Notes under the pieces: model-generated | What the model was told of the DNA's origin: nothing | What the model saw: the letters and a program-made list of their open reading frames with translations, nothing else | Databases searched by the model: none | Source: Octopus vulgaris | Lineage: Eukaryota | DNA length: 64,000 bases | Assembly (NCBI GenBank): GCA_951406725.2 | Contig: OX597824.1 | Span: forward strand, 82,770,001 to 82,834,000 | Direction of reading: 5' to 3' | Part shown: positions 1 to 22,873 of the stretch, in pieces | How positions within the stretch are numbered: the stretch's first letter is position 1 | Layout: every line of letters begins with the position of its first letter | Made by a program: the position numbers and the translations under genes

Positions 1-486
1 GTGATTTTATAATATGTAATCATTATCCTTTTTTATACCAACATCATCACCACCATCATCATCATCATCATTATCATCACTACCACCACTACTATCACAA
101 GTGCCAGCACAATTGTTTTTGCTGACATCACCTTCACCAACATTCAAGATTAATTATCGTTAGCACCATCACAACCATCTCGACACCATCACCACCATCA
201 TCACTATCACCACCACCATCACTATCACCACCTCCACCACCACCACCACCGACACCATCACCACCATCATCACTACCACCACCACCACCACCACCACCAC
301 CACCACCACCACCACCACAAACACCACCACCACAAACACTACTGTCTTCACCATCATCACAAACATTATCACTACTGCCATCACCACGACCATCACTATC
401 ACCACCACTACCACAAATACCACCACCACCACCACCACAAACACTACTGCCATCACCACCATCATAATTATCATCACCATCACCAT
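1..486. repeat. (CAC/CAT)n imperfect trinucleotide microsatellite
   Basis: Directly visible in the sequence. Confidence 0.9.
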
Positions 487-499
487 CAGATTGATGTTT

Positions 500-1350
500 T
501 TACCATTCTTGCAGAGGATGGCTGAGAGTTCTTTAGCATAGCATCTTGCCACTTGTAGCCCAGTCCTTCATCCGCTTAATAACAGCTTCTTGAGATCACT
601 GGCCAAAAGGAGGGACAGCCTGTGGAGTGCAGTCGTCATCTTTCAGCCCATGTCTTCTCTGGTCTTCTTCTTCTAGGTTCCTCCAACTTGTGTTGCTTGG
701 CACTTCTTGAAGCAACTGTCATCCTCCATACACAACACATACATCATCAATATCATCATCATCATTATCATCATCATCATCCTCACCATCTTCATTATCA
801 TCATCATCATCCTCATCATCATCATCATCATCATCCTCACCATCTTCATCATCACCATCATCATCATCATCATCATCATCATCGTTTAACGTCCGCTTTC
901 CATGCTGGCATGGGTCGGATGGTTTGACTGGGAACTGTACAACCCAAAGTCTTCTCTCTTGCATACAACATCTAACTCACTTCTTGCATCCAATTTTCCT
1001 CTCACCTCATTAAACTTTTTATCATCCATGCTCACTAATGCTACACATTGAGTGCTACATGCTTGCTTCATTTCTTCCCATCTTTCACGCCACTGCATTC
1101 TCCGCATTAAGTGCTCGTATTTTACAACCATGCAACAGAGCACTTCACAACACTTAAACCACACGCTCCACTCTTCACTCACACTCGGTAGAAGTAATAT
1201 CACTCTGACCTTTTTTTTCGGCTCACTCATACTCAGGCTCGCTATGCTTTTTGGAACAGCTTCGTTCGCTTCTGTTTTGGTCACCAAGGTAACAGAAGCC
1301 ATCAAACTATGTCTATTGAGCAACTAAGCATTTGGAAAAAGTTCCTTTTA
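500..1350 (-). mobile_element. Degenerate RTE-clade LINE ORF2 3' fragment, interrupted at ~743-940
   Basis: Broken minus-strand translation SALLHG...RNEASM*HSMCSIS...MQERRLW | VLCMEDDSCFKKC...VGGT matches the RTE C-terminal pattern (LHGSETW..ERNEASMLRWMC..QERRLRWYGHV.RMDED.CVKKC). Confidence 0.7.
743..940 (-). mobile_element. RTE-type 3' tail (CCATCCGACCCATGCCAGCATGGAAAGCGGACGTTAAAC) with expanded (GAT)n tail
   Basis: The same tail recurs at 1935, 49350, 50240, 51570 and 57370, each time ending in a GAT-type repeat. Confidence 0.75.
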
Positions 1351-1548
1351 TGGATTGGGCTACTACAGCTAGTTTAATCAATCATATGCATTTGGTGCAA
1401 ACTAAGTCATTCCTAGAGTCAACCTGCCTGTGAACCTGCAGCAAGAGGGGGAGGAGGAGAAGAAAGAGAAAAGAAATTGAGAGAAAGTGGGAGAGAGAGC
1501 AAAAGCAGTGCTGTATGAGATGGTACTATATATATATATATATATATA

Positions 1549-1775
1549 CTTTATTTAAAGCAGCAGAAAATTCAACAAAACCTGTTACTCTGAGTTTCCC
1601 GTTGCCGTTCGTCTGACAGTTTTTGCTAGAAAAAAACTGTCGACCGAACGGCAACGGGAAACTCAGAGCAACAGGTTTTGTTGAATTTTCTGCTGCTTTA
1701 AATAAAGCATATTACTCTACCACTGGTATTTGAGTACTCTTTTTCCACCTTGTTTCACATGTATGTGTTTACTCC

Positions 1776-1777
<2 letters not shown>
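1549..1777. mobile_element. Penelope-like pLTR relic with tail-to-tail inverted arms, inserted in (TA)n
   Basis: Near-perfect ~160-bp foldback at 1549-1707 followed by a unique extension. It carries a minimal hammerhead motif, and a second copy lies at 57093-57255. Confidence 0.6.
1582..1620 (-). ncRNA. Minimal type I hammerhead-ribozyme-like motif (core CAGACGA)
   Basis: Minus strand reads ACTGT-CAGACGA-ACG GCAA CGG-GAAA-CTC A GAG-TA-ACAG: stem I CTGT/ACAG, GNRA-capped stem II, GAAA, short stem III and a GUA triplet. Confidence 0.55.
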
Positions 1778-1820
<43 letters not shown>

Positions 1821-1871
1821 GAGAGAGAGACAGACAGAGACAATAGGGGGAGGTATTGAAAAGGAAACAGG

Positions 1872-1902
<31 letters not shown>

Positions 1903-1903
1903 C

Positions 1904-1935
<32 letters not shown>

Positions 1936-1980
1936 GTTTAACGTCCATGGAAAACGGACATTAAATGATGATGATGATGA

Positions 1981-2021
<41 letters not shown>

Positions 2022-2171
2022 GAGAGAGAGAGAGAGAGAGAGACAAAGAGAGGGAGAGAAAGAGAGATAATAGCGATGTGATGTAGAGAGAAAGCATATT
2101 TTGTACTTTAATCACTTCAAATTGTCATGTTTCTGTGACTAGCTTCCTATCCCAGTAGAGTATTATCTATT

Positions 2172-2234
2172 TCATCTGTTTAACATCCATGTGTCTACTA
2201 ATTCTGTGTACCTAAACACTGACCTTCTGTGACC
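2172..2234 (-). CDS. Candidate terminal coding exon of the BAD-like gene (GHRRSVFRYTELVDTWMLNR*)
   Basis: Acceptor TTCTATACTTTATTTAG|G at 2235/2234 is phase-0 compatible with the donor at 3798. TGA stop at 2174-2172; minus-strand ATTAAA at 2112-2107. The peptide YTELVDTWMLNR loosely resembles the BAD C-terminal WTRVFQSWWDRN. Confidence 0.35.
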   Translation of the reverse strand, partial: GHRRSVFRYTELVDTWMLNR

Positions 2235-2649
2235 CTAAATAAAGTATAGAACAGCCCCCTTTAACAAAAGCCTGTAATATAAGGCTACGGTAGAAACCCC
2301 TTCAAATACTAGTGTGTGTTAACTGTATAGACTTTTGTTTGTTTTTGTTTTTTGGGGTTTTTTTGCTTTTTATTTGGTTTCTTCTGTTTATTTGCTGTTT
2401 ATGCAAATTCTCATTGAAGTGATCTGTGAACCATTCAAAGGAGTCGGGGTGGGGGTTATGTAATGTAGGAGCAAACTTATAAACTAATGGCTAGTAAAAA
2501 GAGTCTGAAACAATGTTTTTAGTTAATTTATTTTGAATTTAATTTATTTTCAGATAAAATTTATATTTTAAAAAAAATAGAAAAGAAAAAATAACAGAAA
2601 GTTTAATTAATATCACGCATTTTCCAAAAGGAAAGTTAAGAAAAATGTT

Positions 2650-3560
2650 TTTGAAACTGTTTAGAGTTCCAATTTTTTCCTTCTTCTTCAGACTAATAGT
2701 TTCTTGAGAAACCATTTAATCTTGTTTTGTTCGTTAGAATGTTTCATTGAATCATGAATAAGAGCATTTTCCAATTGATTCCATGTTTTTCCTAAGGCAA
2801 GAAGGTAAAAGTTGTTGAGCTCTGGAGATCATATTAGATATAAACTCATAGAGATGTTCTGAATTCCAAAATGTTGTTATGGTTGAAGAATTAGAACACC
2901 AGTAGGTGTGGTAAGTATATATGCTTTTGACAGAGGGATCAAAGGTCTAAAACTTGACCTCACCCTTGACATGTTCAATTTGTAGAGTTGATCACCCACT
3001 AAAGCATTCAATAGGTTGGCTTTGTGCAATAGGAATGCTTCAATGGTGCTGGCTGGCATTACCAAAAATAGCAGCAGGAATGATTACTCCATCATGTTAT
3101 TTTTCTTTAAACGCCAATGGAACAGAATCACAACTGAAGTTATGGAATCACATTAATCAAGGACTGATTTTCTCAGCCTTCAGAAGTTTCCAAAGGACAG
3201 GATTATGCCACAGCATACACGGTGCCGCTCTCAGTAAACAGAGACTATCACTGCTACTATTCCGTATGAAATAGGTAGCAAAGTCTTTCTTGTCTGGGAC
3301 CGCCTTTAGAAAGTCAATGAACGCACAACTGTAAGGCATACAGTTGGAAACTGACACAAAGAATCCCATGGCAATTCCACGTGACATACGATAGTGGGTC
3401 TTAGCCAGAATTTCTTCAATTCTTTGTACGCAAGTTTCATTAACATCCTTGAGAAGGATTTCACCAAAGCAAAACTGTAATGGACTTTCAGGATTGGAGC
3501 CAATTTCTAGCATTCAAATATTATATTTGAAAGACTTCTGGCCATTTGGTATTTCCTTAT
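2650..3560 (-). mobile_element. Highly degenerate APE-endonuclease LINE ORF2 5' relic
   Basis: YVTWNCHGIL at 3388-3359 (APE start motif TWNxxG), DSLCLL (D-h-h-h-L-QE-like), HDGVII (GVAI-like) and YS*FNETF near 2750 (PWFNEEC-like linker), with many stops and frameshifts. Confidence 0.45.
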
Positions 3561-3798
3561 TCTTCACCGATATTATCTAGTATATTTAGTTTTAACTTTG
3601 ATTTCACTCCTTTTTTTCTTTAATTCCCTTTAATTTCCATTCCGTTCTACGTTTAGAAAAAAGGTATCACAGGTAGTAAATTAGCTGGCACTAATTGTTA
3701 TTTCCAATTGACAAAATCAGAGTGAAATTAGCTGTAAGTCTGCAGGTGAGACTAAAATTGACCAAGTTTGCAGTGACATGCATATTCCATCTACTTAC

Positions 3799-4013
3799 TT
3801 GGTGGTGTGAATGGTGGCGATTCTGGTAATACTCGTCACTAATTCTCCGAAGTTCCAGTCCAATCGCACGGATGTGTTCATGCCGACGAAGAGGCACTTC
3901 AGGTAATGAGTGCGCTCTGTCCCGTGGTACTGGCACCAAATCTGGCAGTGGATCTTGCCGTGGTGAAACGCTAGAATCTTCTCCTTCGGAGTATAACCGA
4001 CGCGACACACTAC
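3799..4013 (-). CDS. Internal coding exon of a BH3-only pro-apoptotic protein, BAD-like
   Basis: Acceptor TTTCTCATTTTCTTTTCAATTACAG|G at 4014/4013 (phase 1) and donor CAA|GTAAGT at 3799/3798 (phase 0). Translation: (x)SVSRRLYSEGEDSSVSPRQDPLPDLVPVPRDRAHSLPEVPLRRHEHIRAIGLELRRISDEYYQNRHHSHHQ. It has a BH3 LxxxxDE motif (LRRISDEY, cf. BAD ELRRMSDEF) preceded by RDRAHSLP (cf. BAD RGRSRSAP). The sequence is non-repetitive and GC-richer than its flanks. Confidence 0.85.
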
Positions 4014-4103
4014 CTGTAATTGAAAAGAAAATGAGAAATACAGTTAGACATATTCAGCAAAATAATTATTTATCACAAAAAATTTCAAATGAGATATCTA
4101 TGC

Positions 4104-4136
<33 letters not shown>

Positions 4137-4283
4137 ACGGGAAAGTTTACGAAAATAAACAAAAGATGAAGGCAGGTGGAGTACAAACAAACTAATGTAT
4201 TAGTATAGCGCTCAGGAATAGAAATAGAAAAAGTCTTTTACGTTTCGAGCCTACGCTCTTCGACAGAAAGATACACAGAAAAA
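4137..4283 (-). mobile_element. Penelope-like pLTR fragment with hammerhead motif, next to (TA)n
   Basis: Starts at a TA tract and contains an HHR-like motif at 4234-4271. Confidence 0.5.
4234..4271 (-). ncRNA. Minimal hammerhead-ribozyme-like motif (core CUGUCGA)
   Basis: TCTTT-CTGTCGA-A-GAGC GTAG GCTC-GAAA-CG-TA-AAAGA: 5-bp stem I, 4-bp stem II and a palindromic ACGT stem III. Confidence 0.5.
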
Positions 4284-4286
4284 TTA

Positions 4287-4492
4287 AGTACCAGAGAAAC
4301 ACTGGGGTCGATGTAATCGACTATTACCTCCCCCGAATTTCAGGCCTTGTGCCTATAGTAGAAAGGGCTATTATTATAATTATTATCGTCTTTATTTTAA
4401 AGGTGGCGAGCTGGCAGAATCGTTAGCACGCTGGGCAAGATGCTTTGCGGCATTTCATTCACCTTTACGTTCAATGTCGAAATTATGCCGAG
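4287..4492 (+). mobile_element. Two SINE fragments (family with GGCGAGCTGGCAGAATCGTTAGCACGC head and GGCCTTGTGCCTATAGTAGAAAG tail)
   Basis: The same motifs occur in reverse at 8720-8930, 9140-9345 and 51670-52075. Confidence 0.7.
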
Positions 4493-4503
4493 AGGGAGAG
4501 AGA

Positions 4504-4544
<41 letters not shown>

Positions 4545-4604
4545 GTAGCAAGACAGAGACAGAGGGAGAGAGATAGAGACAGACATAGCAAGACATGGAG
4601 AGGG

Positions 4605-4674
<70 letters not shown>

Positions 4675-4849
4675 GTAGACAGATAGATAGATAGAGAGAA
4701 ACAGACAGACATAGCAAGACAGAGGCAGAGGGAGAGAGATAGAGACAGACAGAGAGAGATAGAGACAGACAGATATAGTAAGACAGAGAGAGGGAGATAG
4801 ATAGAGAGAGAGAGAAAAAAACAGACAAACATAGCAAGATAGAGGCAGA

Positions 4850-4883
<34 letters not shown>

Positions 4884-4935
4884 CAGGCAGGTATAGCAAG
4901 ACAAAGAGAGGGAGATAGATAGAGAGAGAAAGAAT
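4493..4935. repeat. (GA)n/(GATA)n compound microsatellite with a recurring ACATAGCAAGAC unit
   Basis: Directly visible in the sequence. Confidence 0.85.
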
Positions 4936-4954
4936 GAGTGACACAGATCAAACG

Positions 4955-5040
4955 GCAGTGTATCACGTGACCCAATATTACGAGCAGACGATGCATCACA
5001 TGACTAACAGACGCGCGTAGAAGGCAAACACCTGTCTTTC
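4955..5040. promoter_or_regulatory. Candidate bHLH-ZIP (MITF/TFE/USF) + NF-Y element
   Basis: TCACGTGAC 4963-4971, CCAAT 4972-4976, TCACATGAC 4996-5004 and CACCTG near 5030, in a CpG-containing unique island between microsatellites. Confidence 0.3.
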
Positions 5041-5652
5041 AATGATGTTGCGATTGTGTTATGTCATAGTTAAGATGTGTCATAATCCTAACATTTATTT
5101 GGTCTTTGTCATACGCACACACATACACATACACATTTGTGTGCATATACAATCTCTTTTGCACACTAAGACGGATAACCAACGAGCTACGTACACACAA
5201 TGCATGCACACACATACACACGATACATGCACGCACATACACACACAGAGAAATGCATATACATACACAGACACACATAAACTTATATATGCTCGTAGAT
5301 ACGAATAATGTTACATGCAGACACAGAAGGCCCAATAAAACACACACACACACACAAAATTGCAGATACCTAAACATATATTTTCGTGTACGTGAAGCTC
5401 CGTACAAAATATTTATGCACACACACACACACAGACATGCATAGACAGAGACACACACACACACACAGACATGCGTACACACAGAGATACACACACAGAC
5501 ATGCGTACACAGAGACACACACACACAGATATGCGTACACAGACACACACATGCAAACATAGAAGAGGTGGGAGGAGGATAAAGTAAGAGATATAAAGAG
5601 AAAAAGAGAGAAATAGGCAGACGAGAAAATGGGTTAGAAAGAGATGTAATAT

Positions 5653-5684
<32 letters not shown>

Positions 5685-6324
5685 TAATGAGGGAGAAAAG
5701 GGAGGGAAAGAAAGAGAGAGAAATTCATTAAAAGAGAAAGAGAGAGATATATAATAAAGGAGGAGAGAAAGAGAAAGAGAGAGACATATATAAGGAGGGA
5801 AAAGAAAGTGAAAGAGACAGACACGTAATAAGAGAAATAGACAGAGATATATATATAATAAGGGGAAGGTGGAAGAAAGAGAAAGAAAGAGACAGACACG
5901 TAATAAGAGAGATAGACAGAGAGACAGACAGATACAGAGAGAGATAGGGAGAGAGATAGAAGAGAGAGAGAAGAAGGCAATGTGGATCAAGGGAGATAAT
6001 ATACAGAGCTTTCTTCACACACGCACTTATAATTTCTCATATGAGGTAAATGAGTGCGATGGCCAAATGAGAGAAATGTAATGATCTCTATTAGGTGATT
6101 TGTATCGGAACTTCAAGAGGTTTTAGGGAAAGGGGGGTTCAACGGTTTGGGCTTATAGGGTTATATATAGGAATGCTAACGAACCGTTCTATTTATTTCG
6201 ATGCGTAAACGAGAAAAACCGTGTTTTCTGTCTATGAAAACTGTCCGTTTGTTTGTACCCAATTTTCTTAAGTTTTGTAGTTTGTAACGCACAGACTACA
6301 AACAAGAAATCACACTCACAAGTA

Positions 6325-6394
<70 letters not shown>

Positions 6395-6409
6395 TGTGTG
6401 TATATATGT

Positions 6410-6613
6410 TTGTGTGTCTGTGTTTGTCCCCCTAGCATTGCTTGACAACCGATGCTGGTGTGTTTATGTCCCCGTTACTTAGCGGTTCGGCAAAAGTGAC
6501 CGATAAAATAAGTACTGACTGGGCTTACAAAAAGAATAAGTCCCGGGGTCGAGTTGCTCGATTAAAGGCGGTGCTCCAGCACGGCCGCAGTCAAGTGACT
6601 GAAACAAGTAAAA

Positions 6614-6615
<2 letters not shown>
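6410..6615 (+). mobile_element. 3' half of the major tRNA-derived SINE
   Basis: GCTTGACAACCGATGCTGGTGTG...GGCGGTGCTCCAGCACGGCCGCAGTC..GACTGAAACAAGTAAAAG matches the copy at 52611-53000. Confidence 0.85.
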
Positions 6616-6686
<71 letters not shown>

Positions 6687-7070
6687 CACACACACACACA
6701 CATATATATATGTATACACACACACACGCATATACACCACACACTTATACATCATTATTATATATTTGGCTTTTCCGTATGTCATCCTGTCTGGCACACA
6801 AGGACATCCTCATCCAAGGACGGCTCAGACAGGAATTGATAAAAACCCCCCAAATTATGTCCAGTTAACATTGCTCCTGGATAACACCGCCCCCTTCTAG
6901 TACCGGCGCCTCCTGATCGAGAGCCACTTAGAGGTAACTTCCGATATCCCCACACGGTAGCCTTCCGCCACATTGGCGCCTGTGATACCAACCATATTGT
7001 TAAGTCTGCAGACGAACTGACCTTTAATCTCTCCGCATTCGATCTTGATCATGATGACCATGCTTGATAA

Positions 7071-7136
<66 letters not shown>

Positions 7137-7137
<1 letters not shown>

Positions 7138-7400
7138 GAGGGGTGCCGAAAAGTTCCAGGTTTTAAGGGTTGCGAAAGGCCGCTGGAGGCCCAACCTTTC
7201 GAGTTTTTCTGTTTTTGTTTCTTTACAGAGCTTAGAAAAACTGATGGATCGCCGCTTTGTGAATCTTAGAAAAACTGAAGGATCGAAGTTTGTGAATCTG
7301 AGAGAAGGAATATATTAAATAAAATGGATCTTTTAATTAAAAAAATCAGGTGACTGAGATTGAAAAGATCCTATAGAATCATAATTAACTGATCCTCCTG
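7137..7400 (+). mobile_element. Mariner-derived MITE, 3'-truncated and rearranged
   Basis: Left TIR CGAGGGGTGCCGAAAAGTTCC; the interior matches 26465-26666. Confidence 0.65.
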
Positions 7401-7435
7401 TATATATATACATACATATATATATATATATATTT

Positions 7436-7585
7436 ATTAGAAGGTTTGGAGATGATGTACAGGTATTTTATATTAGAAGAAATGAGGTACTCAGAAATTC
7501 GGATGGTTTTATATTTATAGATATTTATTTGTATATTACATGTTTTTATACATCATACATCATATATTAGCGCTTTCGTCCATTC
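7436..7585 (-). mobile_element. Penelope-like pLTR fragment ending in the 3' half of a hammerhead (GGAC-GAAA-GCGC-TA)
   Basis: Flanked by TA/TG tracts; the motif lies at 7568-7581. Confidence 0.35.
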
Positions 7586-7587
7586 TA

Positions 7588-7637
<50 letters not shown>

Positions 7638-8431
7638 TCACATTCGCATAAAAAAACACACACACACATATATACGTATGTTGTTCAAGTATTCTTTGTA
7701 GTTTAGATCCAAAGTATTGTAACCGTAACCATTCTTTATTTTTATTCTGGCATTGTATATCATGGACTACATTGCTCATTGTGCTTTTCTTTTTATTTAG
7801 TTGGCAGAATCTAAATAACGCGAGGAAGATTTGACTACTGTTTCTAGAAGACTGGGTGACGACGTAGGGAATACTTGTTAGAGGCTCGTTACATTCATTC
7901 ACCTAATTTCAGTCGCTGAACTGCGGCCATGCCGAAGCAAAAGCAATATAGTGCCGCAGTTTAATGAAGTACAAGAGACTTATACCTCTCCCACCTTATG
8001 TCGCTGTTGTTCAGCCCCCTTCCTCCATCATTCCTATTTTAAAACGAAGGGGGTTGTTATTTGGCTGTTGTTTCTAGCATGTCGACTGACGACACAGATT
8101 TCTTGTTTGTTGACTCACTGTTTTATTGTGGCGCTATTATACTAATAGTTGCTATTATCTGCACAAATCGTTTAATGCATTAAATATTTAATTACTATTG
8201 CAATGCATTAACTGTTAGTTAATTAATTAATAATAGTTAATTTATAGACTTGGCTTGAAAAGAGACACAGTGTCTGTTAGCAATTGGGAGTTATTTTGTT
8301 GTTCTTTTTCGTTATCTAAAAATAAAATAAAAATTAAATTAAAACGGAGCCTTCTTCTTCTTCTCTTCAACGTTTGTCGCAACAGTTATAATCAATCATA
8401 ACTGCCTGCAATCATAACAGCAACAGCAGTA

Positions 8432-8710
8432 GAGGCGCAATAGCCCAGTGGTTGGGGCAGCGAACTCGCGGTCGGAGGATCGCGGCTTCGATTCCCAGAC
8501 CGGGCATTGTATGTGTTTATGTGTTTATTGAGCGAAAACACCTAAAGCTCCACGAAGCTCCGGCATCTACGAGTCTGGATGCGCATTCATCCACCCGTCG
8601 TTGCTCTCGGTGTCGGGGGGTTGACTTGCTTTCTCTGCTGCGGGTCTTACGAATAGCAAAGGACCACGTTTCGGACTTCTCCAACTAATGAGACGAAGAC
8701 CGCTTCGCTC
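8432..8710 (+). mobile_element. tRNA-derived SINE (second family)
   Basis: A/B-box-like head TAGCCCAGTGGTT...GCTTCGATTCC. Flanked by AACAGCAACAGCA on both sides (8416-8428, 8711-8723). The head is shared with 55754-56058. Confidence 0.75.
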
Positions 8711-8724
8711 AACAGCAACAGCAA

Positions 8725-9345
8725 CAATAATAATGGCTTCAAATTTTGGCACAAGGCCAGCAATTTCCTGGGAATGAGTGTGTCGGCTACATCGACCCCA
8801 GTGTTTCTTTGGTAATTATTTCATCGATCCCGAAAGGATGAAAGGCAAAGTCAACCTAGGCAGAACTTGAACTCAGGCGCTAAGCATTTTGTCCGGGTGC
8901 AGATGATTCTGCCAGCTCATCGGCTTTTTTTCAATAATTATAATAATCCTTTCTACTATAGCAGGGGTCCCCAAAATTGTAGGCCATCAACTCCTTCGTG
9001 AAATTCTTGACCCCCTCATCGAACCCCAGGCATGTACAAGAAAATAAATAATACTTAAGTAGGTGTGCCTTTATCGACCCTTTGAATAGTCCCATTGACC
9101 CCAAGGGACCATAACCTCTTTGGAGGCCCCTGTACTATATGGGCACAAGGCCTGAAATTTGGTGGGGGGGGGAGCTAGTCGATTACATCGCCCCCAGTGT
9201 TTAACTGGTATTTATTTCATCGATTCCGAAAAGATGAAAGGCAAAATCGACCTCGACAGAATTTGAACTCAGAACACGAAGACAAGACTAAAATGCCGCT
9301 AAGTATTTTCTCCTGTGTGCTAACAATTCTGCCAGTTCGCCGCCT
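8725..9345 (-). mobile_element. Two tandem SINE copies, the second interrupted by a hAT MITE
   Basis: Repeated GGCACAAGGCC..GACCCCAGTG..CGAAAGGATGAAAGGCAAAGTC..GAACTCAG blocks. Confidence 0.75.
8962..9132. mobile_element. hAT-type MITE
   Basis: TIRs CAGGGGTCCCCAAA / TTTGGAGGCCCCTG; 8-bp TSD TACTATAG (8954-8961) / TACTATAT (9133-9140). Confidence 0.75.
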
Positions 9346-10149
9346 TTTTTTTTAATTATAAGGGGGAGAAAAAAAATAACGATAATCTAATAACGGATGG
9401 GCCTCGCTCCACTAATAGTTCTTTTTGATACAGACACAAGCCTTGAAATCTTGTCGGGTAGGGAGCTGGTTGAGTACCTACCTCGACTCCAGTATTTGAC
9501 TTGGTCTTGACACCTCCAATAATATTAATAACAGTAATTCCTTACAAAAAATACACGGTTCAAAATGGTGTGTGAGCAATGCTGTAGCTTCGTGTGAATC
9601 TTGAGCTTTGTATAAATCAAACAACAGACTTAATCATGGCTCAAGTATTTAAATATTTTCTGACTGCGAAGTGATATCATAGTCGTTGTGATGTGGCTTT
9701 ACGATGATTATATCCGTATCTGTAGCAGCAGAACGTCCTAGATATATGGACAGTGGTTTAATGGCTTAGGTGGTGGTAGAGGTGGGTCTTATTTGAGCTT
9801 TCTAAAGAGACATCAACTGATTAGAGCTGGAAGCATCTCAGCTCTTGTGACACGACGCAAAGTGTGTGTCTGTATGTGTCTATGTGTAGTTCCAATACCG
9901 ATCCAGATATATGAACAGTAATAAGCTTTGTCTAAGGTTAACAAAGTACTTTCTTGCCTTGATAATCAAATTCAGTCGCTGTGACGTCTAAGATATTGTA
10001 CACGAAGCAGTAGCTTGTCCAAGATACGAAGATTGTGGAGTCTTACCTCGAGTTTTCTACATTGCATGTGAGGGACATAAACGATCCCAAGCTGACAAAA
10101 TTAATTGATTTCATCATAGGATACGAATCATCGTGTCTTCTGTCGTCTC

Positions 10150-10700
10150 ACGATTTTTTTCTCTCTTTTTGGCAGCAATGAGTAGCACAACACTACAAAA
10201 CAGCTTATCATCGAAGACTTTGGACACAAGTATTTATAAATCTCTCCTTCTCCCGACAACACTACCACAGCGACATCAGGTATTTACTACGGCCGAGCAA
10301 TCACGAAAGGATTTTAACTTTGTGTAAAGGCCATGCTGTAGCACCAGCTTTTCAGAGTTGAATGCTCTATGTCATTTTTACTCACCATGTTCTTAGGGAC
10401 TAAACATTATTGTGATCTTTAAGCGTTCTGGTGCATTTCCTATGACCAACACTGGTTTCCCAAGATTAAAGCGTTGGATTTTAGCAATTCGATCTGGTCT
10501 GAGCACTAACGTGGCCAATATCTATTCAACGCTTTTTGGCGTATTCTTATCCATTGTATATTAAACAATTTGTTAATCTTTTCCTTATTCTTTCATAAAG
10601 TTAAATGTCCTATAATATTAAACTCCTAAAAACAGTCTTTGAAAGACTTGGCAGCACTAAATTCATTAGATGCCATAAAGAAGACTTAATGAATTTGGTT
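10150..10700 (-). mobile_element. Possible pogo/Tigger transposase relic
   Basis: Fragments EKINKLFNIQWIRIRQK (CENP-B HTH-like) and KPVLVIGNAPE..LVPKNMVS (cf. LLILDNAPGH..FLPPNTTS). The similarity is weak. Confidence 0.3.
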
Positions 10701-11419
10701 TTAAGCAAAACTTAGTAAAGACCAATTTGCATCTTTTTATTAAGAGGATCTCCTGATTATTTGTTGGATCTCCTGATTACGTACAGCTACCAAGACTTCT
10801 CCACCTCAAGGAGTACGCCATGCATGAATAAAATAGTTACGAATAAAAAAATTGAACCCAAAACTGACTAACAATGCACTTGGTTATATAATCAAACTAT
10901 TTTATTGCAATGTTTCGAGGTACCCTAAGCGACCTCTTGGGGGAACACCAGTTGGGAAATATTGTTTCAGGTCTTTTATGCCATCTCAATGTGTAATCCA
11001 GTGGTTTTAGTTAGGCTTATTTTAGTTTTTGCATGGATAAGTAACATCTCTTAAAGACAGGTCGATGAACTGGTGGAGACTGGTCTTTTTCTTTCTGTTT
11101 TTATTGCCGTAGTAACTTTAATTCATATTCTTCCGAATTCATGTTGCAAATATGTTTTTACAATGTATAAATAAGCCGTTAATAAAAACGACGTTTTAGC
11201 TATTGCTGTATGGTCTGAGACGGGTTAGTCTTAAAATACTCCAGCAAAGACAACAATCTATTACAGGCATCATTCCTAAGATCAACTGGCAAACACTTCC
11301 TCTTCTAACGACTCTAGATAGACTGAGGTAATGTAATAATAATAATACGTATTGCTTCAAGATATTATGATGGGAGCTAAATCTAGATAAAACACCTGTC
11401 TATTGTAGAAACCACCACC

Positions 11420-11800
11420 AGATAATCTGCATTTTATTCTGTTACCAGATGTAGTTTTAAAGTTCAGATCAGTTCATCTGTTTCTTATTCCGCCACCAGA
11501 TTATTCTGAGTTCGTATCAGTTCATCTGTCTCTTATTTAGTCACCAGATGTAGTTTTAAATTCAGGTCAGTTCACTTGTTTCCTATTCAGTCACGAAGAT
11601 ATTCTAAGCTCAAATCAATTTGAACTTATTTTGTTTCTTATTCAGTCACAAAATGTCGTTCTCACTTCAGATCAGTTCATCTGTTCCCTATTCAGCCATT
11701 AGATAAAAGTTTTTGAGTTCTAATCAATTAATCTCCATCCTATTTTGTTACCGGACGTTGCTTTGAGTTTAGATCATTTCACCTACTTTCTGTAAAGCCA
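11420..11800. repeat. Degenerate ~50-bp minisatellite, about 7-8 copies
   Basis: Unit approximately CACCAGATGTAGTTTTGAGTTCAGATCAGTTCATCTGTTTCTTATTCAGT. Confidence 0.8.
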
Positions 11801-14636
11801 TGAAATAATCTGAACTGAGATTAGTTCATCTTTCCCATTGAGCCACTCGTTATAGTCCTCAGTTCAACTCCAGCCAAGATCAGTACTGCCTATTGTCTTT
11901 TCTTCCAACGAAGGCAAAACAAAAAGTACCAGTCATGCACTAAGGTTGGCCTGCATCTCAAACCCATAGGATGCGTAGTCATGTGTAAGGTGTAATAAAT
12001 TGATTCAATGTGTAGCAGCAATCAGTAAAAAATGTAGTTGACGTTGGTTGGATTCGAACACTGAACATACAGAGATGCGACAAAATACTGCAAGACTGTT
12101 TGTAAAGCGATCTATTGATTCAGCCAACTCGTCGCCATTTACGTCCAACCATCACATTTCCATTTTGCCGGTCCATTTACCGATTCTGTCATCTTATCGA
12201 ACGTTATCGATTCTTAATATCGAGCTTGAGACGTAGTCGTTTATCCAGATCCTCGTTATTCGACCGGACGAGAAGCAACGTTTGACTTCGGCAGGATTTG
12301 AACTTAGAATGTAAGAAACAAGTCGCGAAATATCACAGGCATTTTATCCGGTTCTTTTACCTATTGTATACATTATCCACAAGAACCTTGTTAACGCGTT
12401 AATAATGAAATAACTATGGCTAATAGAAACAGCAAGCTAGAAAATCCATATTATTTTACGAATATAAATTATTGAAAATTAGAAAAAAACTCGGAAAACT
12501 GTAAATATATTATTTGTAAATATAATTTTATTTTATTTCATTTGGAAATTTTACAATTTTCTTAAATCTCTTTCTTTTTTTCTTTTTCGGCATTTTTCAT
12601 TTATATATATATATATATTTTATCGATATTTTTAATTTGTTTTCTGGGGTTTTTTTCCAAGTATATTTGAAATTGTTTTATTCGTTCATTAGTTTTCACA
12701 AATCACACTCTTTATATATATATCTTTATATATATATATATCTTTATATATATATATATATCTTTATATATATATATATATACATACATACATACATATA
12801 TACATACACTCACACACACATTACTGGAGTCTAATACTTAACATTAGATACATTACCAAGCTTAAAGACAACAAGTGGAATGGTCACGATTGGCTATCTT
12901 TGATCATAGGTCTGCTTTATTTATAAAGGACAACCTTGGGCTAAAAAACATCAGCTACGAAATACACGCGATATAATATATTCTTCCATACATTAAGTCT
13001 GAAAAGAAAAATACGACGAGACAGCCACGACTGGAATATATTTGACTTATATACGTCCGTCTGATTAGGCCTGAAGATGTTTTAAGATTAATGGAATATT
13101 TGTTGAGACAGCAATTAGGTAAATAAAGATATATTGCGCACCTAATTTTTTTTTTTAATTTTCTGTGTCTGTGTGTAAGGCTCACAGTAAAATACAAACG
13201 ATTGTAAAAGCTATGCTCGCATCGATATATACACGCACGCACACAAGTGTGTGTGTGGTTGGCAATGATGGAAGACGTCCGTCGTTTCATCAACTGAATT
13301 ACCTGCTCCTGAATTAGCGTAGGAAATGGCCAAAGCATTCGACACACGTGTAACCTTAACGTAATTTCTGCGGCAGAATCAGCTTACCATATGTGTGTGT
13401 GTGTGTGATGAAGATGTACCGTTTTGAATTACAAATACAATCAACCTGACGGGCTTCTGTCTCTTTTAATTTTATTCACACGGTTAGAACAGAAAATTGA
13501 CAAAATCCCCACCTCACCGCACCCCAGAATGTTACGCAGCGTGAAGTGAAGGTTTTGATCTTTCGGTTATATTGCTCCTATTAATGCAAGGGGCTACGGG
13601 TATACGACTACTTTCTGTATGGAAACCTAAAAGACAACCTTATCTTTGACATAAATAGACAATTCTAATTTAATTCTGGTATTGAGCACTCTTAAGCTTT
13701 TTTTCGTAAAACGATGCCGTTTAGAATCCATCGCCCTGTCTAACCAACGAATAATAAACACATGTAAATACATACGAATATCATTAGACAAGACAATGTA
13801 TTTGCACGTCGGCTCTTCCATATTATTTCACACAATAATTATGTTTAAAGCTACAGTGGGTTTCCTAAATTGACTTCACAAAAGCTTATATTAAAACTCT
13901 CTCTCTTGCCTTAAAACGTGCACGTACTTAATAAACTGCACAAATAGTATGCATATATATATTTATATATATATATATATTATGGTTTCTAACATTGCAC
14001 AAGGTAACCAATTTGGGGGTGGAAGAAATGGTATATAGATTAGATACGCTTCAGTCCTTGGGTGTTCCTTTAGAACGTATTTTATCGATGCCCAGCAGAT
14101 TAAATCTAAAGTCGTTCTCGGCGAGAATCGAACTCAGAACTGCAAAATATTTTGTCTGAGACGTTACCAATTCATCCATCCAGCAGTTTACATTAACAAC
14201 TAACCAAATTTTTTTATTTATTTTAAGCAAAGGCACAAGGAAGGGATTTAGTCAATATTATTGATCGTCGGTATTTAATTGTTACTTAATATTTTTTTGA
14301 ACCCGGGGATGGAAAGCCAAGTTGACCAAAGCTGAATTTGAACGTAAACAACCGGAATAGATAACGTAAAGGCATTTTCACAGACGTTCTAACGATTGTA
14401 CGTTCGAATCCATCGCCCTGTCTAACCAACGAATAATAAAATAACGTTTTGATTGTCAAAATTTTGCTGTCCACAATTTTCTGCATATAGTGGTGTATGT
14501 AGAAATAAAAACAGCTAAAAACTAATCCGTATTTCGAGCTATTACATATTTCTCTAATCCAAACATTTTTTCGCCTTCTTTTACTTAATTCTTTCTTGAA
14601 TATAAACCAAAATTTCAAAGAAACAAAGTATTACTT

Positions 14637-14839
14637 GAAGCATATTCTGTTGTGTCTGGGGAGAGTCATTCTCTTTTTGTGCCTTATAATTTAACACACA
14701 CACCGGTAAAATTTCCACTTATTTCTTAATTTTTATTTTCTAAAATTTTCAATAGTCTTGACTGACTATTGATTGAAAAAGGTTGCAAGACGCAACGAAA
14801 ATTTTAGAAAATAAAAATAAGTGGAAATTTTTACCGGTG
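14637..14839. mobile_element. Foldback (Penelope pLTR-like) insertion with a 12-bp TSD
   Basis: AAAGTATTACTT at 14625-14636 and 14840-14851. Inverted arms CACCGGTAAAATTTCCACTTATTT..TTTTCTAAAATTTTC / GAAAATTTTAGAAAA..AAATAAGTGGAAATTTTTACCGGTG. Confidence 0.65.
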
Positions 14840-15244
14840 AAAGTATTACTTATTCTGGACGTAAAAGAATGGATCGTTAGTAAAGCTAAGTGGAGCACAA
14901 GTGGTGGACACTTTGAGGTGCTAGAAATAGATAGTCATTTAAATCGTCTCTTTTATTGACCTACGAACGATATATGTGAAAATGGATAGGTGCTGGGGTT
15001 TGAACTCAGAGTATCAACTAAATATTGTGAGATTGTTGTTGTTTTTGGTCGAGTACTCTATAAAATTGTAACCTGTCCAACACCATTTATACGTTTTTTT
15101 TTTATGCGTTTCAACCCGAAGGTTGCGGCCATGCTGGGACACACACACAACACATACAAACATATGTGCGTTCATATGCATATAAAATGTACACATACAT
15201 GTGCACGTGTACACACACACACACAAAAGAGAGGCTACCATACA

Positions 15245-15280
<36 letters not shown>

Positions 15281-15322
15281 TTTGATGCAGACAACACCTG
15301 CATAAGATATTTAAGCGCAACT

Positions 15323-15355
<33 letters not shown>

Positions 15356-16026
15356 AGAAGAAGAAGAACACAAGAGGTCACACTTCAGTTGAAGGTCACT
15401 AGTGAAGCCATGGCTTAGCATTATTGAAACTCCCAAGACCAACGCCAACGTCATCCTCCACCCTCACCATCGCAATCACGACCACCACCACCACCATCAC
15501 CATCATCAACAACAATAACGACATCATCATCATCATCACCACCAACAACAACGCCGACAACACCTGTTACTAGAGAGATACTACTGCTACTATCAAAAGC
15601 TACTAGTTACAACGTGGAATAAATAAGCTTGGCTCGAAATACTAGTAAAAAATAGTAGTAGCAGTTGTATGGCAACTACAGTATCCCTCAAACCACACCC
15701 TGTCGTCTTAAATAAAGAACATAGGAATAATATATTCTTCTGAAGCAAAAAAAAAAAAACATGATAAATAAATGAATATATAAATATGCGACGTGATGGT
15801 CATGATTTGACAGTCGATTATCATAAATCTACTCGACCAGGGGCCGACTGTATAACAAACAACAAATATTATAGTAACGATAAGCTCACACCATGCTTTA
15901 TTTCTTTGGTACTACTAGGCTGTTGTAACTAACGATTATTCTGCATTAAATAGGGATTATTATTTATTTTTTTTATATTTCGTTAGTTATTATTATTATT
16001 ATCATTATTGTTATTATTATTATCAA

Positions 16027-16067
<41 letters not shown>

Positions 16068-16969
16068 TGTCTGTCTGTTTATCTTGGTTGGGCCGACCGC
16101 GCGGCTGCCCGACCGACGGTGCAGACGTTTTTTGTTTGTCAAACCCCGCCTATCGCTGTGTTTTCCGATTCAGAGCAGGAAAGCCCACTACTAACAAAGC
16201 CCCCACCACCACCACTACCATCACCCTCACACCACCACCACCACCAACAACAACATCTATTACTATTCCTACTACAGCTACTACTACTACTACAACTGTT
16301 ACTACGATTGCTTACACCAATGGAAACGATTCTTAGCAGCATCAAATATTGACAGCTGTATTAACACCATCACCACCAGCAGCAACATCAACAACAACAG
16401 CAACAATAATAAAATAATAATAATAATAATAATACTATAAAAAGAAAAATACAGGATATTGCGGAAAATATTCGCGCTAACAAGTGCGGAATTGACCGGA
16501 GGGAAGGGCAGGTAACTCTCGTAGCTAACACAAAACCTGCATTGGTTTTTGACTGCAATGCAGTGTGGTGGTGGCGACGGCGGCGGTGATGCTGATGTGG
16601 TGGGGGGGAGGAGAGGGAAGAGATAGAATTTGGAACACAAGGTGCAACCATGCCAACAGCATTAAAATATTCTTTTATTCTTTTTTTTTTTTTTTAATTT
16701 ACTCGTTTCATCCATTGGACTTGCGGCCACGCTGGGGCACCCACCGCCTTACATACAGCAAGGGTTTCTTTTCCTTTTCTTTCCTTTGTTTTTTTTTTGT
16801 TTTTTTTTGCTGTTGTTTTTTTTGTTTTGTTTTCCAATCGATTTTATCGATCCTAATGTTTATTCCAGTCTGGCGCTAATTATATTGATCACTTTTCGTC
16901 GAACCGCTAATTATACGAAAACACTCACACATCCATCCATATGTACGTGCATGTCTGTCTGTCTGTATG

Positions 16970-17049
<80 letters not shown>

Positions 17050-17325
17050 TGGAGCATGATAAGACAACTGAAAGACGGACTTGCGCGCGCGCACACACAC
17101 ACACACCAGGGTCTCTGCAGAGTTTCGGTCTGCCAAAGCTATAATAGGAAACATGATGCCATGTTGTGGATAGAACACAACCACATGGCAGAGAAACGAG
17201 CCATGATGGATGGCATATATATATATATATATATATACTTAAATAAATATTTCTTTGTAGTTTGATGGTAGGTGATCTATTTCTAGCATACGGCCGACTA
17301 CCTAGTGGTCTTGCCCTTTGAATAT

Positions 17326-17384
<59 letters not shown>

Positions 17385-17839
17385 CGAATAAGCATGCACA
17401 GAGACACAAGGACGTGTGAATTCAAATAATTAAACAATTAACAAAATAACTTCTAAGAGAGGTACACGGCCAGAATTTTCAAGGGACGAACAGAGAAAGG
17501 AGTGGTAGCTACTTATTGTTACAAATGCGCCCCAGTTAGGGGAAATGCAAAACTCGACACCTCGGCTGGATTTGAATTCAGCACGCCCGAACATCGAAGC
17601 TAAATGTCGCAATGCATTTTTGGTTCGACGCTTCGTCGATTGTACAGCCATTATTCTCTCACTGCGCGCGTGCGAATATACACGTGTATACACGCACATA
17701 TATATAATATATATATATATATATACACCAGTCATGAATACATAGTACAATACAGAGCAAATGCTGGGTGTTTATGCATACATTAAAGTGCAAGCTATGC
17801 TGTATTAGGCATGGGAAGTGGGTGGGTAATGTATTTATA

Positions 17840-17985
17840 ATGTATGTATACAAGGTGCTATATATACGTGTGTATATGTATACAAGGTGCTATACATTTA
17901 TGTGTGTGTGTGTGTATGTATACAAGGTGCTATATATATATATATATGTGTGTGTATGTATACAAGGTGCTATATATATATGTGT
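17840..17985. repeat. Tandem TGTATACAAGGTGCTATA unit x4 with TG/TA spacers
   Basis: Directly visible in the sequence. Confidence 0.8.
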
Positions 17986-18413
17986 GTATGTATACACAGT
18001 ACATGGTAGTGTACAACAATAGAAAGGTGTGTATACAATCAAATGCAACAATAGATATATATGAGTAAATGTGTACGAGTGCGCGTGCACTTAAAGGTAC
18101 ACAAGTGTTCTAGTAGTACAAGGAATGTGTGTGCATGCGCGTGCATGCATGTGTGTGTGTATGTGTGTGTGTGTGTGTCTACTGAGCACATGTCACGAAG
18201 AAGCAATAACAACAACTATTACTGCTGGTACAAATCCCTCGTGTCAATCAACATCGCCAGACAGCAAGTGTTGATTGGTGAGTGACACGTTGCTGATGTG
18301 TACATAGATATTGCACACATATATGTACACTATTATGTAGTACAGTATTGTAGTGTGTGTTGTGCAGTGGCGTTATGTGTATGAAATTGAAGCGTATAGT
18401 AGTATAGTAGTAT

Positions 18414-18795
18414 AGGCGCCGGAGTGGCTGTGCCTGTGTGGTGAGTAGCTTGCTTACCAACCACATGGTTCCGGGTTCATTCCCAGTGCCTGGCACCTTG
18501 GGCAAGTGTCTTCTACTATAACATCGAGCCGACCAAAGCCTTGTGTACCTGTTTAAGACACACATTCAAAGGGGCTCGGTAAACAGTTACGCCCGAGGGC
18601 CCTTAATGCTCTCAGTCCGCCCCTGTGTATCTGTAATTCAAAGGGTCATCCTTATCACATTGAATATCCTACAGAATCTATGTTAAGGGTTTCGCGTGTC
18701 TGTGGAGTACTCAGCCACTTGCACGCTAATTTCACTAGAAGGTTGTTCCGTTGATTTGATGAACTGGAACTGATCCTCCATCATAAGCGACGGAG
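18414..18795. mobile_element. SINE 5' half (+) abutting another repeat fragment
   Basis: GGAGTGGCTGTG..GGTTCCGGGTTC..GGCACCTTGGGCAAGTGTCTTCTACTATA. Confidence 0.7.
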
Positions 18796-19052
18796 TTCCA
18801 ATAGTCATACAGTGTGCAGTACGTTTTATAGTGTTGTGGTATTTAGCTTGCATTGTAGTGTAGGCTGCAGTATGTTGAGTGGTACAGTGTTGCAGAATGT
18901 GGTGGTATAGTACATAGTATATGTTGTAGTGATAATAGGAGTAGACGTGGCCGTTGCGGCATGAAGTTTGCTTCCTAACCACATGGTCTCGAGTTCAGTA
19001 CAACTTTCGGTAAGTGTCTTCTACTATAGCCCCAGGCCGACAAAGATGACTG

Positions 19053-19112
<60 letters not shown>

Positions 19113-19254
19113 CATACATACATACATAATACATACATACATATGGACGTGAGTATGCATGAACTTGTGTATGTGTGTTTCAGTCACGAGGTCAAAGTGA
19201 AAGTAGACCAAATCCACTCACGAGGTCAAAATGAAAGTAGACTTGTGTATCTTT

Positions 19255-19527
19255 ACTTTTTTACTTGTTTCACTCATTTGAGCGCAGCCATGCTGGAGCA
19301 ACGCCTTAAGGGTTTCTTTTGGTTTTTTTTTTTTGAGTGGAAGAAATCGACCCGAGGACTTATTCTTTATAAGCCTAGAGTACTTATTCTATCGGTCACT
19401 TTTGCCGAACCGCTAGGATACGGAGAGGTAAACACACGAACATCGGTTGTCAAGCGATGGTGGGGGGGGGGGCAAATACAGACACATACACACACAAATA
19501 TATATATATGACAGGCTTCTTTCAGTT
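19255..19527 (-). mobile_element. Major SINE, 3' portion
   Basis: Matches 52611-52860. Confidence 0.8.
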
Positions 19528-19749
19528 CCGTTATTCGAAAAAAAGTTCGTTTTCTATATTATCGTTTTTTTATGTTCTCGTTTCTCATTCAGTCCACGTG
19601 TTTTTGATGTCCTGTACCCATATATGCATGTATATATATATGCATACATATGTAGGCATATACATACATGTATGTATATATGCATGTATGTATATATTAT
19701 TTATATTACTATATCATCAAACGTCACGCATCCCTTTCCAAGTTATATC

Positions 19750-19807
<58 letters not shown>

Positions 19808-19810
19808 TAT

Positions 19811-19918
19811 AAAAGGAAATGAAGAAAATGCTGACAAAATAATTTAAGTAATTTAAGTAATTTAATTAGGTGAAAGTTCTTTTTACCGGTTGCGCATTTG
19901 TTATGCTTATCAAAAGAG
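19811..19918 (-). mobile_element. Penelope-like pLTR fragment with a UUGAUAA-core hammerhead relic
   Basis: Minus 19918-19878: CTCTT-TTGATAA-GCAT AACAA ATGC-GCAA-CCGG-TA-AAAAGA; adjacent to (TA)n. Confidence 0.45.
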
Positions 19919-20040
19919 ACCGATAGAATAAGTACTGGGCATATACAAAGAATAAGTCCCGGGGTCGATTTGCTCGACTAAAGGCGGTGCTCCAGCATGG
20001 CCGCAGTCAAATGACTGAAACAAGTAAAAGAGTAAAAGAG
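19912..20040 (+). mobile_element. Major SINE 3' end, low divergence
   Basis: GAGACCGATAGAATAAGTACTGGG...GACTGAAACAAGTAAAAGAG. Confidence 0.85.
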
Positions 20041-20269
20041 TATATATATATATATATGCAATGCTACGTATGTGCATGTTTATATACATGTATGTGTGTG
20101 TGTGTGGACACGTGTCTGTGTGCGACGCATGCGCATGTTGTTGTATCCACATGTAATGGGAGAGTGGTGTATGTATGCATGTTTATTGTGATATAGCACG
20201 TGTTACGCGTATGTGTTCGTCTACCAATTTCAGTCTTTCGCCGCCTCCCTCCTCCTCGCCCCTGATATC

Positions 20270-20341
20270 TTACACTGACGTAACTCAGACTCTGTCTCCC
20301 TCTTTCTCTCTACTCCTCCTCCCTCCTTTTCTCTATCCTCT

Positions 20342-20379
<38 letters not shown>

Positions 20380-20520
20380 AGATAAAAGCGAAACATCGAC
20401 AACGCTTCCTCTCGTCTCTTTTCCCCACACTTTACCAAAGCTACATTTTCCTAGTTGCTATAGCAATCGATAATCGATCGGAAATCGTTCGCTAACGGTA
20501 ACCTTGGCAACGTTGCAAAG
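20270..20520. promoter_or_regulatory. Candidate enhancer/promoter with paired RFX X-boxes and a CRE-like site
   Basis: GTTGCTATAGCAAT 20454-20467, GTAACCTTGGCAAC 20498-20511 and TGACGTAA 20276-20283; CpG-rich. Confidence 0.4.
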
Positions 20521-20677
20521 GCTTGTTGTACGTTGCCTGTGAACTTATTAAATGAATTAGGAGTTTGCATAACCACGGAAACACAAAAACGTTTATATAC
20601 ATCCGTGCACGTGTGAGTGTATATATACACGTAATTTTGTGTGTGTGTATATATATGTGTCTATACAAATGCACACA

Positions 20678-20717
<40 letters not shown>

Positions 20718-21059
20718 GCTTAAGACGAAGAATTCATATATGCAACCATCTTCTGTAAATACATTTTAAAACCATATCATGCTTGTGTGTCTGTGTGTCC
20801 TTGCTTGTTTGTGTCTGCCGGTGTTTTTTTAGTTGCATCCCTTTGCGCGTTAGAAAAAAAAAACAAGAACGACAACAGAAAAATAAATTTTCACTTAACG
20901 ATCCAACAAAGAGATATCGATAAAACGAGTACTAACTAACAGACTGGGATTAAATAATTATTAGGGGCTTCGATATGACCAAGAACAATAACAAACAATA
21001 AAGACGGTGGTGCCCCAGCATGGCCTCGGTCTAATGACAGAAAAAACTAGCAATAGATT

Positions 21060-21113
21060 TATAATGATGATGATGATGATAATAATAATAATGGTAATAT
21101 TTACTACTACTAC

Positions 21114-21151
<38 letters not shown>

Positions 21152-21203
21152 GTAATAATAATAATAGTAATAATGGTAAAACTATTACTACTACTACTAC
21201 TAC

Positions 21204-21247
<44 letters not shown>

Positions 21248-21894: not shown

Positions 21895-21939
<45 letters not shown>

Positions 21940-22178: not shown

Positions 22179-22209
<31 letters not shown>

Positions 22210-22735: not shown

Positions 22736-22828
<93 letters not shown>

Positions 22829-22838
22829 GTGTAAAAAA

Positions 22839-22873
<35 letters not shown>

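Follow-up and report, generated by a model that had tools for sequence, protein, structure and literature searches.

A predicted octopus BH3-only gene with a BAD-like BH3 exon and BIM-type motifs in the exon before it

Does a 215-nt exon of Octopus vulgaris belong to a BH3-only cell-death gene, and if so, is that gene BAD? The window, that is, the whole 64,000-nucleotide stretch analysed, was described preliminarily as containing a cleanly spliced exon that encodes RDRAHSLP and, after 13 residues, GLELRRISDEY. Reading the minus strand, which that description left unstated, the exon is preceded by a pyrimidine tract and AG acceptor on the 5' side and followed by a GTAAGT donor on the 3' side. 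The stated peptide arises only in the frame opening at base 3, which gives the exon its phases of 1 and 0, and its translation contains, in order, RRLYS, RDRAHSLP, 13 residues and GLELRRISDEY. Splice signals, frame and peptide were therefore all found as described, the splicing being read from the DNA. The exon was the single match in the genome both by DNA search and by search with a bivalve exon protein, so that it is likely single copy, as judged by searches that score few candidates. An identity search with the translated exon gave 3 matches among 49 candidates, with 99% identity to O. bimaculoides XP_014777070.2 and 82% to a hypothetical protein of Argonauta. By this protein similarity the source is Octopus, which bears out the initial guess of a cephalopod.

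Around this exon we predict a gene of three coding exons and about 609 residues (Table 1). Coding exon 1 lies 74 kb upstream of the BH3 exon and contains DSSY (residue 71), an acidic run with DDVF (327), SxPIxI (352) and TQT (456). The junction proposed at 3798/3799 has its GT donor, but other 3' ends are possible, as RefSeq isoform X1 of O. bimaculoides reads through it and X2 continues to 2791. The intron before the alternative last exon measures 1,007 bp, and AATAAA hexamers are found near that exon at 2548, 2532, 2392 and 2374. The conserved last exon encodes an SFPG motif followed by a likely amphipathic segment and is 79% identical to the Argonauta C-terminus. Because SFPG is seen across molluscs, this exon is likely the main 3' end, giving the protein of about 609 residues. 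It is absent from the three O. bimaculoides cluster members examined, including both RefSeq isoforms (P0002/P0005). A cephalopod-like relative of 461 residues encodes an equivalent of each of the three exons on contigs no longer than 2,248 bases, from which we infer a spliced transcript. BH3-only genes follow a rule by which the BH3 lies on one exon, the second to last (PMC7022251), and that is its position in the conserved and X2-type isoforms, as in BAD.

Table 1. Positions of the predicted gene and its motifs in the window, unless given on contig C11
Feature	Position	Strand	Details
Coding exon 1	G000:C11:82849400-82847930, outside window	-	1,471 nt; phase-1 GT donor
Part of intron 1 (73,916 bp)	4014..64000	-	Within window
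BH3 exon (coding exon 2)	3799..4013	-	215 nt; phase 1 / phase 0; 71 whole codons
Site 1, RRLYS (Ser8 of exon)	3988..4002	-	Likely counterpart of human BAD S75 / mouse S112
LPD(L/V/I)xP motif	3931..3948	-	76/87 relatives
Site 2, RDRAHSLP (Ser35)	3901..3924	-	Predicted Akt/RSK and 14-3-3 site; resembles human S99 / mouse S136
BH3 motif, Ile50-Tyr61	3829..3864	-	Hydrophobic I50, L54, I57, Y61; Asp59
Ser58 in RRxS within BH3	3838-3840	-	Predicted PKA site; resembles human S118 / mouse S155
Read-through past donor	3691..3798	-	35 aa + stop; as O. bimaculoides isoform X1
Alternative last exon	2744..2791	-	15 aa + stop; phase-0 AG acceptor; as O. bimaculoides isoform X2
Part of 26,922-bp intron to conserved last exon	1..3798	-
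Conserved last exon	G000:C11:82746876-82746733, outside window	-	47 aa + stop; phase-0 AG acceptor

Splice boundaries were also read from proteins rather than DNA, using 49 short relatives, 16 of which have a close full-length partner. Six short/full pairs, including Mytilus, Aplysia and two echinoderm-type pairs, diverge with a Val directly after the exon, as a phase-0 GT predicts, and their match opens at Gly, Asp or Glu, as phase 1 after an AG predicts. Among the remaining pairs one is ambiguous by a residue and the others are uninformative. Elsewhere in the window, the 60 kb above 4014 consists of intronic sequence with many simple repeats, and neither Rfam families nor tRNAs were found across positions 1-64000. 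Two further minus-strand reading frames were noted. One of 118 codons (3160-3513), in the intron or read-through 3' region, has weak APOBEC-like Pfam matches (E=0.013, below cut-off) and is probably due to chance; the other, of 145 codons (889-1323), has no Pfam match and is possibly repeat-derived.

The RefSeq model of this gene in O. bimaculoides carries the name 'transcription factor mef2A-like'. That identity is ruled out, since the protein has no such Pfam domain. Family members are nearly all annotated as 'uncharacterized' or 'hypothetical', and the expectation that BH3-only genes go misannotated or unnamed in invertebrates holds true here. Besides correcting this name, our analysis indicates that the O. 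bimaculoides models examined lack a last exon.

A profile built from five exon sequences recovered 92 proteins at E<=0.001 among 1.84 billion. Twenty of the 92 were looked up by identity, and a second search added named members. The named members represent seven phyla (Mollusca, Brachiopoda, Nemertea, Annelida, Hemichordata, Echinodermata and Cephalochordata) and include bivalves, gastropods, Lingula, Lineus, Owenia, two hemichordates, sea stars, crinoids, a sea cucumber and amphioxus. The putative switch gene is accordingly not specific to the octopus lineage, to which it had been assigned at the outset. Motifs were counted in the 87 proteins with a BH3 pattern after removal of five rows: P0065, P0073 and P0094, which are likely false matches, P0070, which has a variant BH3, and P0077, which has none. 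RxRxx[ST]xP at site 2 is present in 78/87 relatives and a Ser before the BH3 Asp in 79/87, counts that, like the others for motifs of the exon, are partly circular, as the search profile was built on those motifs; nor are the relatives independent. An Akt/14-3-3-type site followed by a BH3 with Ser for Gly, in the order known from BAD, thus extends well beyond Octopus.

Motifs upstream of the exon lie outside the search profile, and the counts for TQT and the degron-like motif are hence independent of it. They were taken from 40 full-length relatives with at least 150 residues before the BH3 and compared with 500 shuffles. [TS]QT, 55-130 residues upstream of the BH3, occurs in 34/40 (shuffles: mean 1.7, maximum 7), a degron-like motif of the DSG[YC] type likewise in 34/40 (mean 1.4, maximum 5), and SxPIxI in 19/40 (mean 1.7, maximum 6). 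A second count used 35 hand-picked proteins, whose related sequences are not independent events: TQT, site 2 and the BH3 Ser were each found in 34, site 1 in 28, and the degron-like motif (DSG[YC]x[TS] or SSGYxS-type, counting octopod DSSY) in 30. TQT, degron-like motif, site 2 and BH3 Ser occur jointly in 27 of the 35. The BH3 Leu/Asp core and its hydrophobic positions are among the most conserved alignment columns. Also conserved, with no known partner, are LPD(L/V/I)xP, SxPIxI, the acidic run with DVF, SFPG and a Trp-containing C-terminal segment.

Some species have two or three family copies: Mercenaria (P0128/P0130), Ruditapes (P0024/P0132/P0079; one copy lacks TQT) and Mactra (P0035/P0028). 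P0080 and P0093, with the similar P0068, P0085 and P0090, are relatives of 100-180 residues without LPD, two of which pass the Pfam BAD cut-off. For the hemichordate protein P0063 the best Atlas feature match is a cluster of 119 members, most of them from arthropods (247 aa, score 0.88), which hints that arthropods too may have the family.

The three Ser sites of the exon differ in how closely they resemble those of BAD. Human S75 and S99 peptides (PMC3411107 supplement) match sites 1 and 2 in form. RRLYS, which had been suggested to correspond to Ser112, is its likely counterpart; however, in Octopus the site is degenerate, without the +2 Pro of human S75 and without the -5 Arg of the RxRxxS/T form present in 62/87 relatives. 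Judged by its residues, it is the weakest of the three Ser sites in Octopus. From the Ser of site 2 to the BH3 Leu there are 19 residues in Octopus and 15-16 in deuterostome invertebrates, as compared with 15 from S99 to L114 in human BAD (PMC3411107, PMC6756016), and echinoderm FRDRSNSAP is close to human FRGRSRSAP. The BH3 itself contains LxxxxD, with Leu and, five residues on, Asp, together with the spaced hydrophobic positions. AlphaFold2, run on the exon alone, gives one helix at residues 41-69, with pLDDT 88-97 over residues 41-70, and no secondary structure over residues 1-40.

Gly, in place of Ser, precedes the BH3 Asp in 6/87 relatives, and the putative Ser switch is to this extent dispensable in some of them. 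These BIM-like LRRIGD forms are P0031 (Mizuhopecten), P0088, P0042, P0052, P0054 and P0078; some retain the upstream site, and the set provides naturally occurring controls for the switch. Against the family pattern, Octopus has DSSY where relatives have DSGY, lacks the -5 Arg at site 1, and carries Ala at -2 of site 2, Ile at -3 and Tyr at +2 of TQT, and Leu following the BH3 Gly. At this last position (window 3856-3858) O. bimaculoides has Gln and the cephalopod-like P0021 also has Leu; the octopus Leu is either a variant or an assembly error. With DSSY, site 1 and the TQT flanks softened in octopods, our most secure predictions are site 2 and the BH3 Ser.

Profile searches place the gene between BAD and BIM. 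The preliminary description had proposed the Pfam BAD model as a check, and its outcome is divided: some relatives score above the cut-off, but the exon alone matches no Pfam family. Neither the exon nor the octopod proteins score above the cut-off of PF10514, the O. bimaculoides protein matches PF08945 alone (E=0.03), and genome searches with both models did not return the BH3 exon. The lone PF10514 genome match (C1, E=4.5) was discarded, since its frame is repetitive and contains stops. Among 30 members scanned at E<=0.1, 23 matched BAD, 20 BIM-BH3, 2 BMF and 2 PUMA, and none the BIM N-terminal model (Bim_N); scanned singly, 7 of 16 proteins were above the BIM-BH3 cut-off and 4 above that of BAD. 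P0063 passes the PF10514 cut-off, with profile positions 61-145 covered. The Bcl-2 fold (PF00452) had no match in 5/5 and 30/30 proteins, and the protein, with its low-complexity sequence, is likely largely disordered and without that fold. A single-sequence PDB search with the exon gave nothing relevant. In the PDB, the exon profile places BAD peptides in ranks one to three and BIM next, whereas under the full-length profile BIM peptides take the first three ranks and BAD the fourth. Atlas clusters matched were BMF, BIM, PUMA, NOXA and PXT1 (scores 0.76-0.88, leads only), and the Atlas structure search was meaningless (TM<=0.31). A BH3 motif, the absence of PF00452 and profile matches to BAD and BIM peptides agree with the initial call of a BH3-only gene. 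The term BAD-like suits the exon, for which the profile ranks BAD first, but not the whole gene, given TQT, the degron-like motif and a full-length profile that ranks BIM first.

Compared with vertebrate BAD (PF10514), the gene shares two basophilic Ser sites before a BH3 with Ser for Gly, and its deuterostome relatives share the site 2 spacing. It differs in its length of about 609 residues against a BAD model of 166 positions, in the Octopus spacing of 19, in the degenerate site 1, in an exon without a PF10514 score, and in having a TQT anchor and degron-like motif. To our knowledge, BAD has neither of the latter. With BIM (BCL2L11; PF08945) and BMF (PF15185) it shares a TQT anchor encoded by the exon that precedes the BH3 exon, the LC8 motif of BIM likewise being on a separate upstream exon (PMC2871139), a degron-like motif upstream of TQT, and the LRRIxD core, and relatives score above the PF08945 cut-off. 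In contrast to BIM and BMF, it has Ser, not Gly, before the BH3 Asp, a BAD-type RxRxxSxP adjoining the BH3, no strict (K/R)xTQT in Octopus and no Bim_N match. The exon is BAD-like and the preceding exon carries BIM/BMF-type motifs, and by its sequence the gene is likely a hybrid of BAD and BIM. We would not file it as BIM, because Ser rather than Gly precedes the BH3 Asp, nor as BAD, because the PF10514 cut-off is missed and orthology is conjectural.

Three other explanations were considered. That the motifs arose by chance in intronic DNA, or that the exon is a dead relic, would fit the lack of a Pfam match for the exon alone. However, a composite of RxRxxS/TxP, 10-22 residues and the BH3 core occurs once in the six frames of the window and in 0/150 simulated windows of the same dinucleotide make-up, in which the BH3 core alone appeared once overall; 92 homologues exist; and the flanking exons are intact, ordered, in phase and on the same strand. 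We consider chance or decay negligible as an explanation, and that this is a real BH3-only gene as close to certain. A family gene might instead act mainly outside cell death, in metabolism or as a scaffold through 14-3-3 and LC8, its BH3 being weak or meant for another partner. Human BAD does have Bcl-xL-independent metabolic effects (PMC6756016), long inserts of low complexity interrupt the octopod protein, in which several motifs are degenerate, and the unexplained conservation of LPD, SxPIxI and SFPG suggests other partners. Against this, the BH3 core and hydrophobic positions belong to the most conserved columns and a Bcl-xL-like gene is present in the genome, which leaves a role mainly outside death very improbable.

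The more serious alternative is a one-to-one BAD orthologue, in which TQT and the degron-like motif arose by convergence or have no relation to BIM and BMF, themselves of different descent. Sites 1 and 2 and the BH3 Ser do align with human S75, S99 and S118, roughly at the same spacing, the hemichordate protein passes PF10514, the exon profile puts BAD first, and TQT and DSGxxS/T are short enough to arise twice. Yet the two additional motifs persist across the range from molluscs to echinoderms, and amphioxus retains TQT as well. In echinoderms, SSGYxS stands just before STQTP, which is the order, with the S-S-x-x-x-S spacing, of the S93/94/98 degron and LC8 site of BIM (PMC4695108). RPEI before the BH3 in echinoderms and hemichordates matches BIM peptides, the BIM-BH3 cut-off is passed by more proteins than that of BAD, and no second BH3-only gene was found in the genome by searches that are weak. 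On balance, we regard simple BAD orthology as unlikely and favor the hybrid.

How such a hybrid might act can be drawn by analogy with BAD and BIM. The genome has five Bcl-2 family matches (L004-L008; C9, C2, C15), of which L004 on C9 is Bcl-xL-like (E=2e-37 to Bcl-xL chains). When unphosphorylated, the BH3 helix would occupy the groove of this Bcl-xL-like protein and free Bak/Bax-type effectors; binding to a Bcl-2-fold groove is highly probable, although a BH3 motif is difficult to recognize by sequence alone (PMC7022251). Phosphorylation of Ser35 by Akt/RSK-type kinases would allow 14-3-3 to sequester the protein, and PKA/RSK would phosphorylate Ser58 within the BH3 and block groove binding. 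The roles of the corresponding S75, S99 and S118 in BAD have been described (PMC6756016). We think it probable that Ser35 is a 14-3-3 site and, with slightly less assurance, that Ser58 is a phospho-switch. Dynein light chain LC8 could bind TQT and thereby dimerize or tether the protein, and the degron-like motif could set its turnover, both acting as further brakes. For LC8 (motif literature: PMC2871139, PMC6607443), two bivalve TQT motifs have 7/8 residues of the phage-display optimum, and many TQT peptides fail to bind (PMC6607443); for the octopus TQT, we lean only narrowly toward binding.

A degron of this kind has the consensus form DSGxxS/T. The BIM degron comprises S93/94/98 of BimEL and is of beta-TrCP type (PMC4695108). 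The octopod DSSY form may have weakened it, and a working degron in Octopus is doubtful. As to setting, cytochrome c release has been demonstrated in oyster (PMC5550854), and a BCL-2-related protein of O. bimaculoides bound human BID peptide in a bacterial assay (bioRxiv 2020.08.29.273581). Taken together, we find it fairly probable, and a shade more so than the reading of Ser35, that the exon is the BH3 exon of a predicted 609-residue BH3-only protein, likely a pro-death sensor silenced by survival kinases.

The existence of this family has probably already been glimpsed. As for BH3-only proteins, a 2017 oyster study reported none in any mollusc (PMC5550854), and a squid survey names BNIP3 as its sole BH3-only protein (PMC9389742). 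Suraweera et al. 2022 list 'Potential BH3-only proteins' (PMC8998228, Fig. 5) that include O. bimaculoides and, in the legend, Lottia, Mizuhopecten, C. virginica, Lingula, Acanthaster, Stichopus and B. floridae. All of the species listed have members in our set, and their 118-residue S. japonicus protein has the same length as P0069. Matched by species and length, their octopus candidate is probably this gene. That survey lists its candidates without regulatory analysis: its main text has no occurrence of 14-3-3, phosphoryl- or dynein, and sections 2.4 and 3 do not assign orthology to them. Our search of the openly accessible literature found no title on a BAD-type switch in an invertebrate BH3-only protein nor on a BIM/BAD/BMF/PUMA quartet, and the combination of BAD and BIM features was not found described in the literature covered.

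One invertebrate gene bearing features that vertebrates split between BAD and BIM/BMF suggests a pro-orthologue. The family may represent the single pre-duplication gene of the type ancestral to vertebrate BIM, BAD, BMF and PUMA, a reading we hold by a slim preference; it is with the same slight inclination that we would have the kinase/14-3-3 switch, BH3 Ser switch, LC8 anchor and degron split among the four genes by two vertebrate genome duplications. We take BIM, BAD, BMF and PUMA to be located in the four regions of paralogon 3. Its quads A-D include MERTK (chr2, 111.9 Mb), PLCB3/GPR137 (chr11, 64.3 Mb), PAK6/PLCB2/TYRO3 (chr15, 40.2 Mb) and PAK4/AXL (chr19) (Lamb, PMC8040251), and none of the four death genes is among the rows listed of the supplement table of that paper. 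In the octopus genome a search with the PLC-beta C-terminal model gave no match, and a BUB1-like match lies on C9, not C11, giving no support to the ancestor reading. These synteny probes are uninformative, because cephalopod genomes are rearranged. The last homologue search was limited to 274-2000 residues, which excludes vertebrate BAD, BIM and BMF.

If the ancestor reading is true, BIM, BAD, BMF and PUMA are kin, despite the description of the BH3-only class as polyphyletic (PMC11463336) and the tagging of BAD as a singleton (PMC3411107). For cephalopods, the predicted gene would supply a concrete upstream trigger of mitochondrial apoptosis, controlled at four points that can be tested. Should the gene prove to be a hybrid, kinase/14-3-3 gating of cell death by growth factors would be older than the divergence of protostomes and deuterostomes, and human BAD and BIM would owe their separate controls to the division of one ancestral protein.
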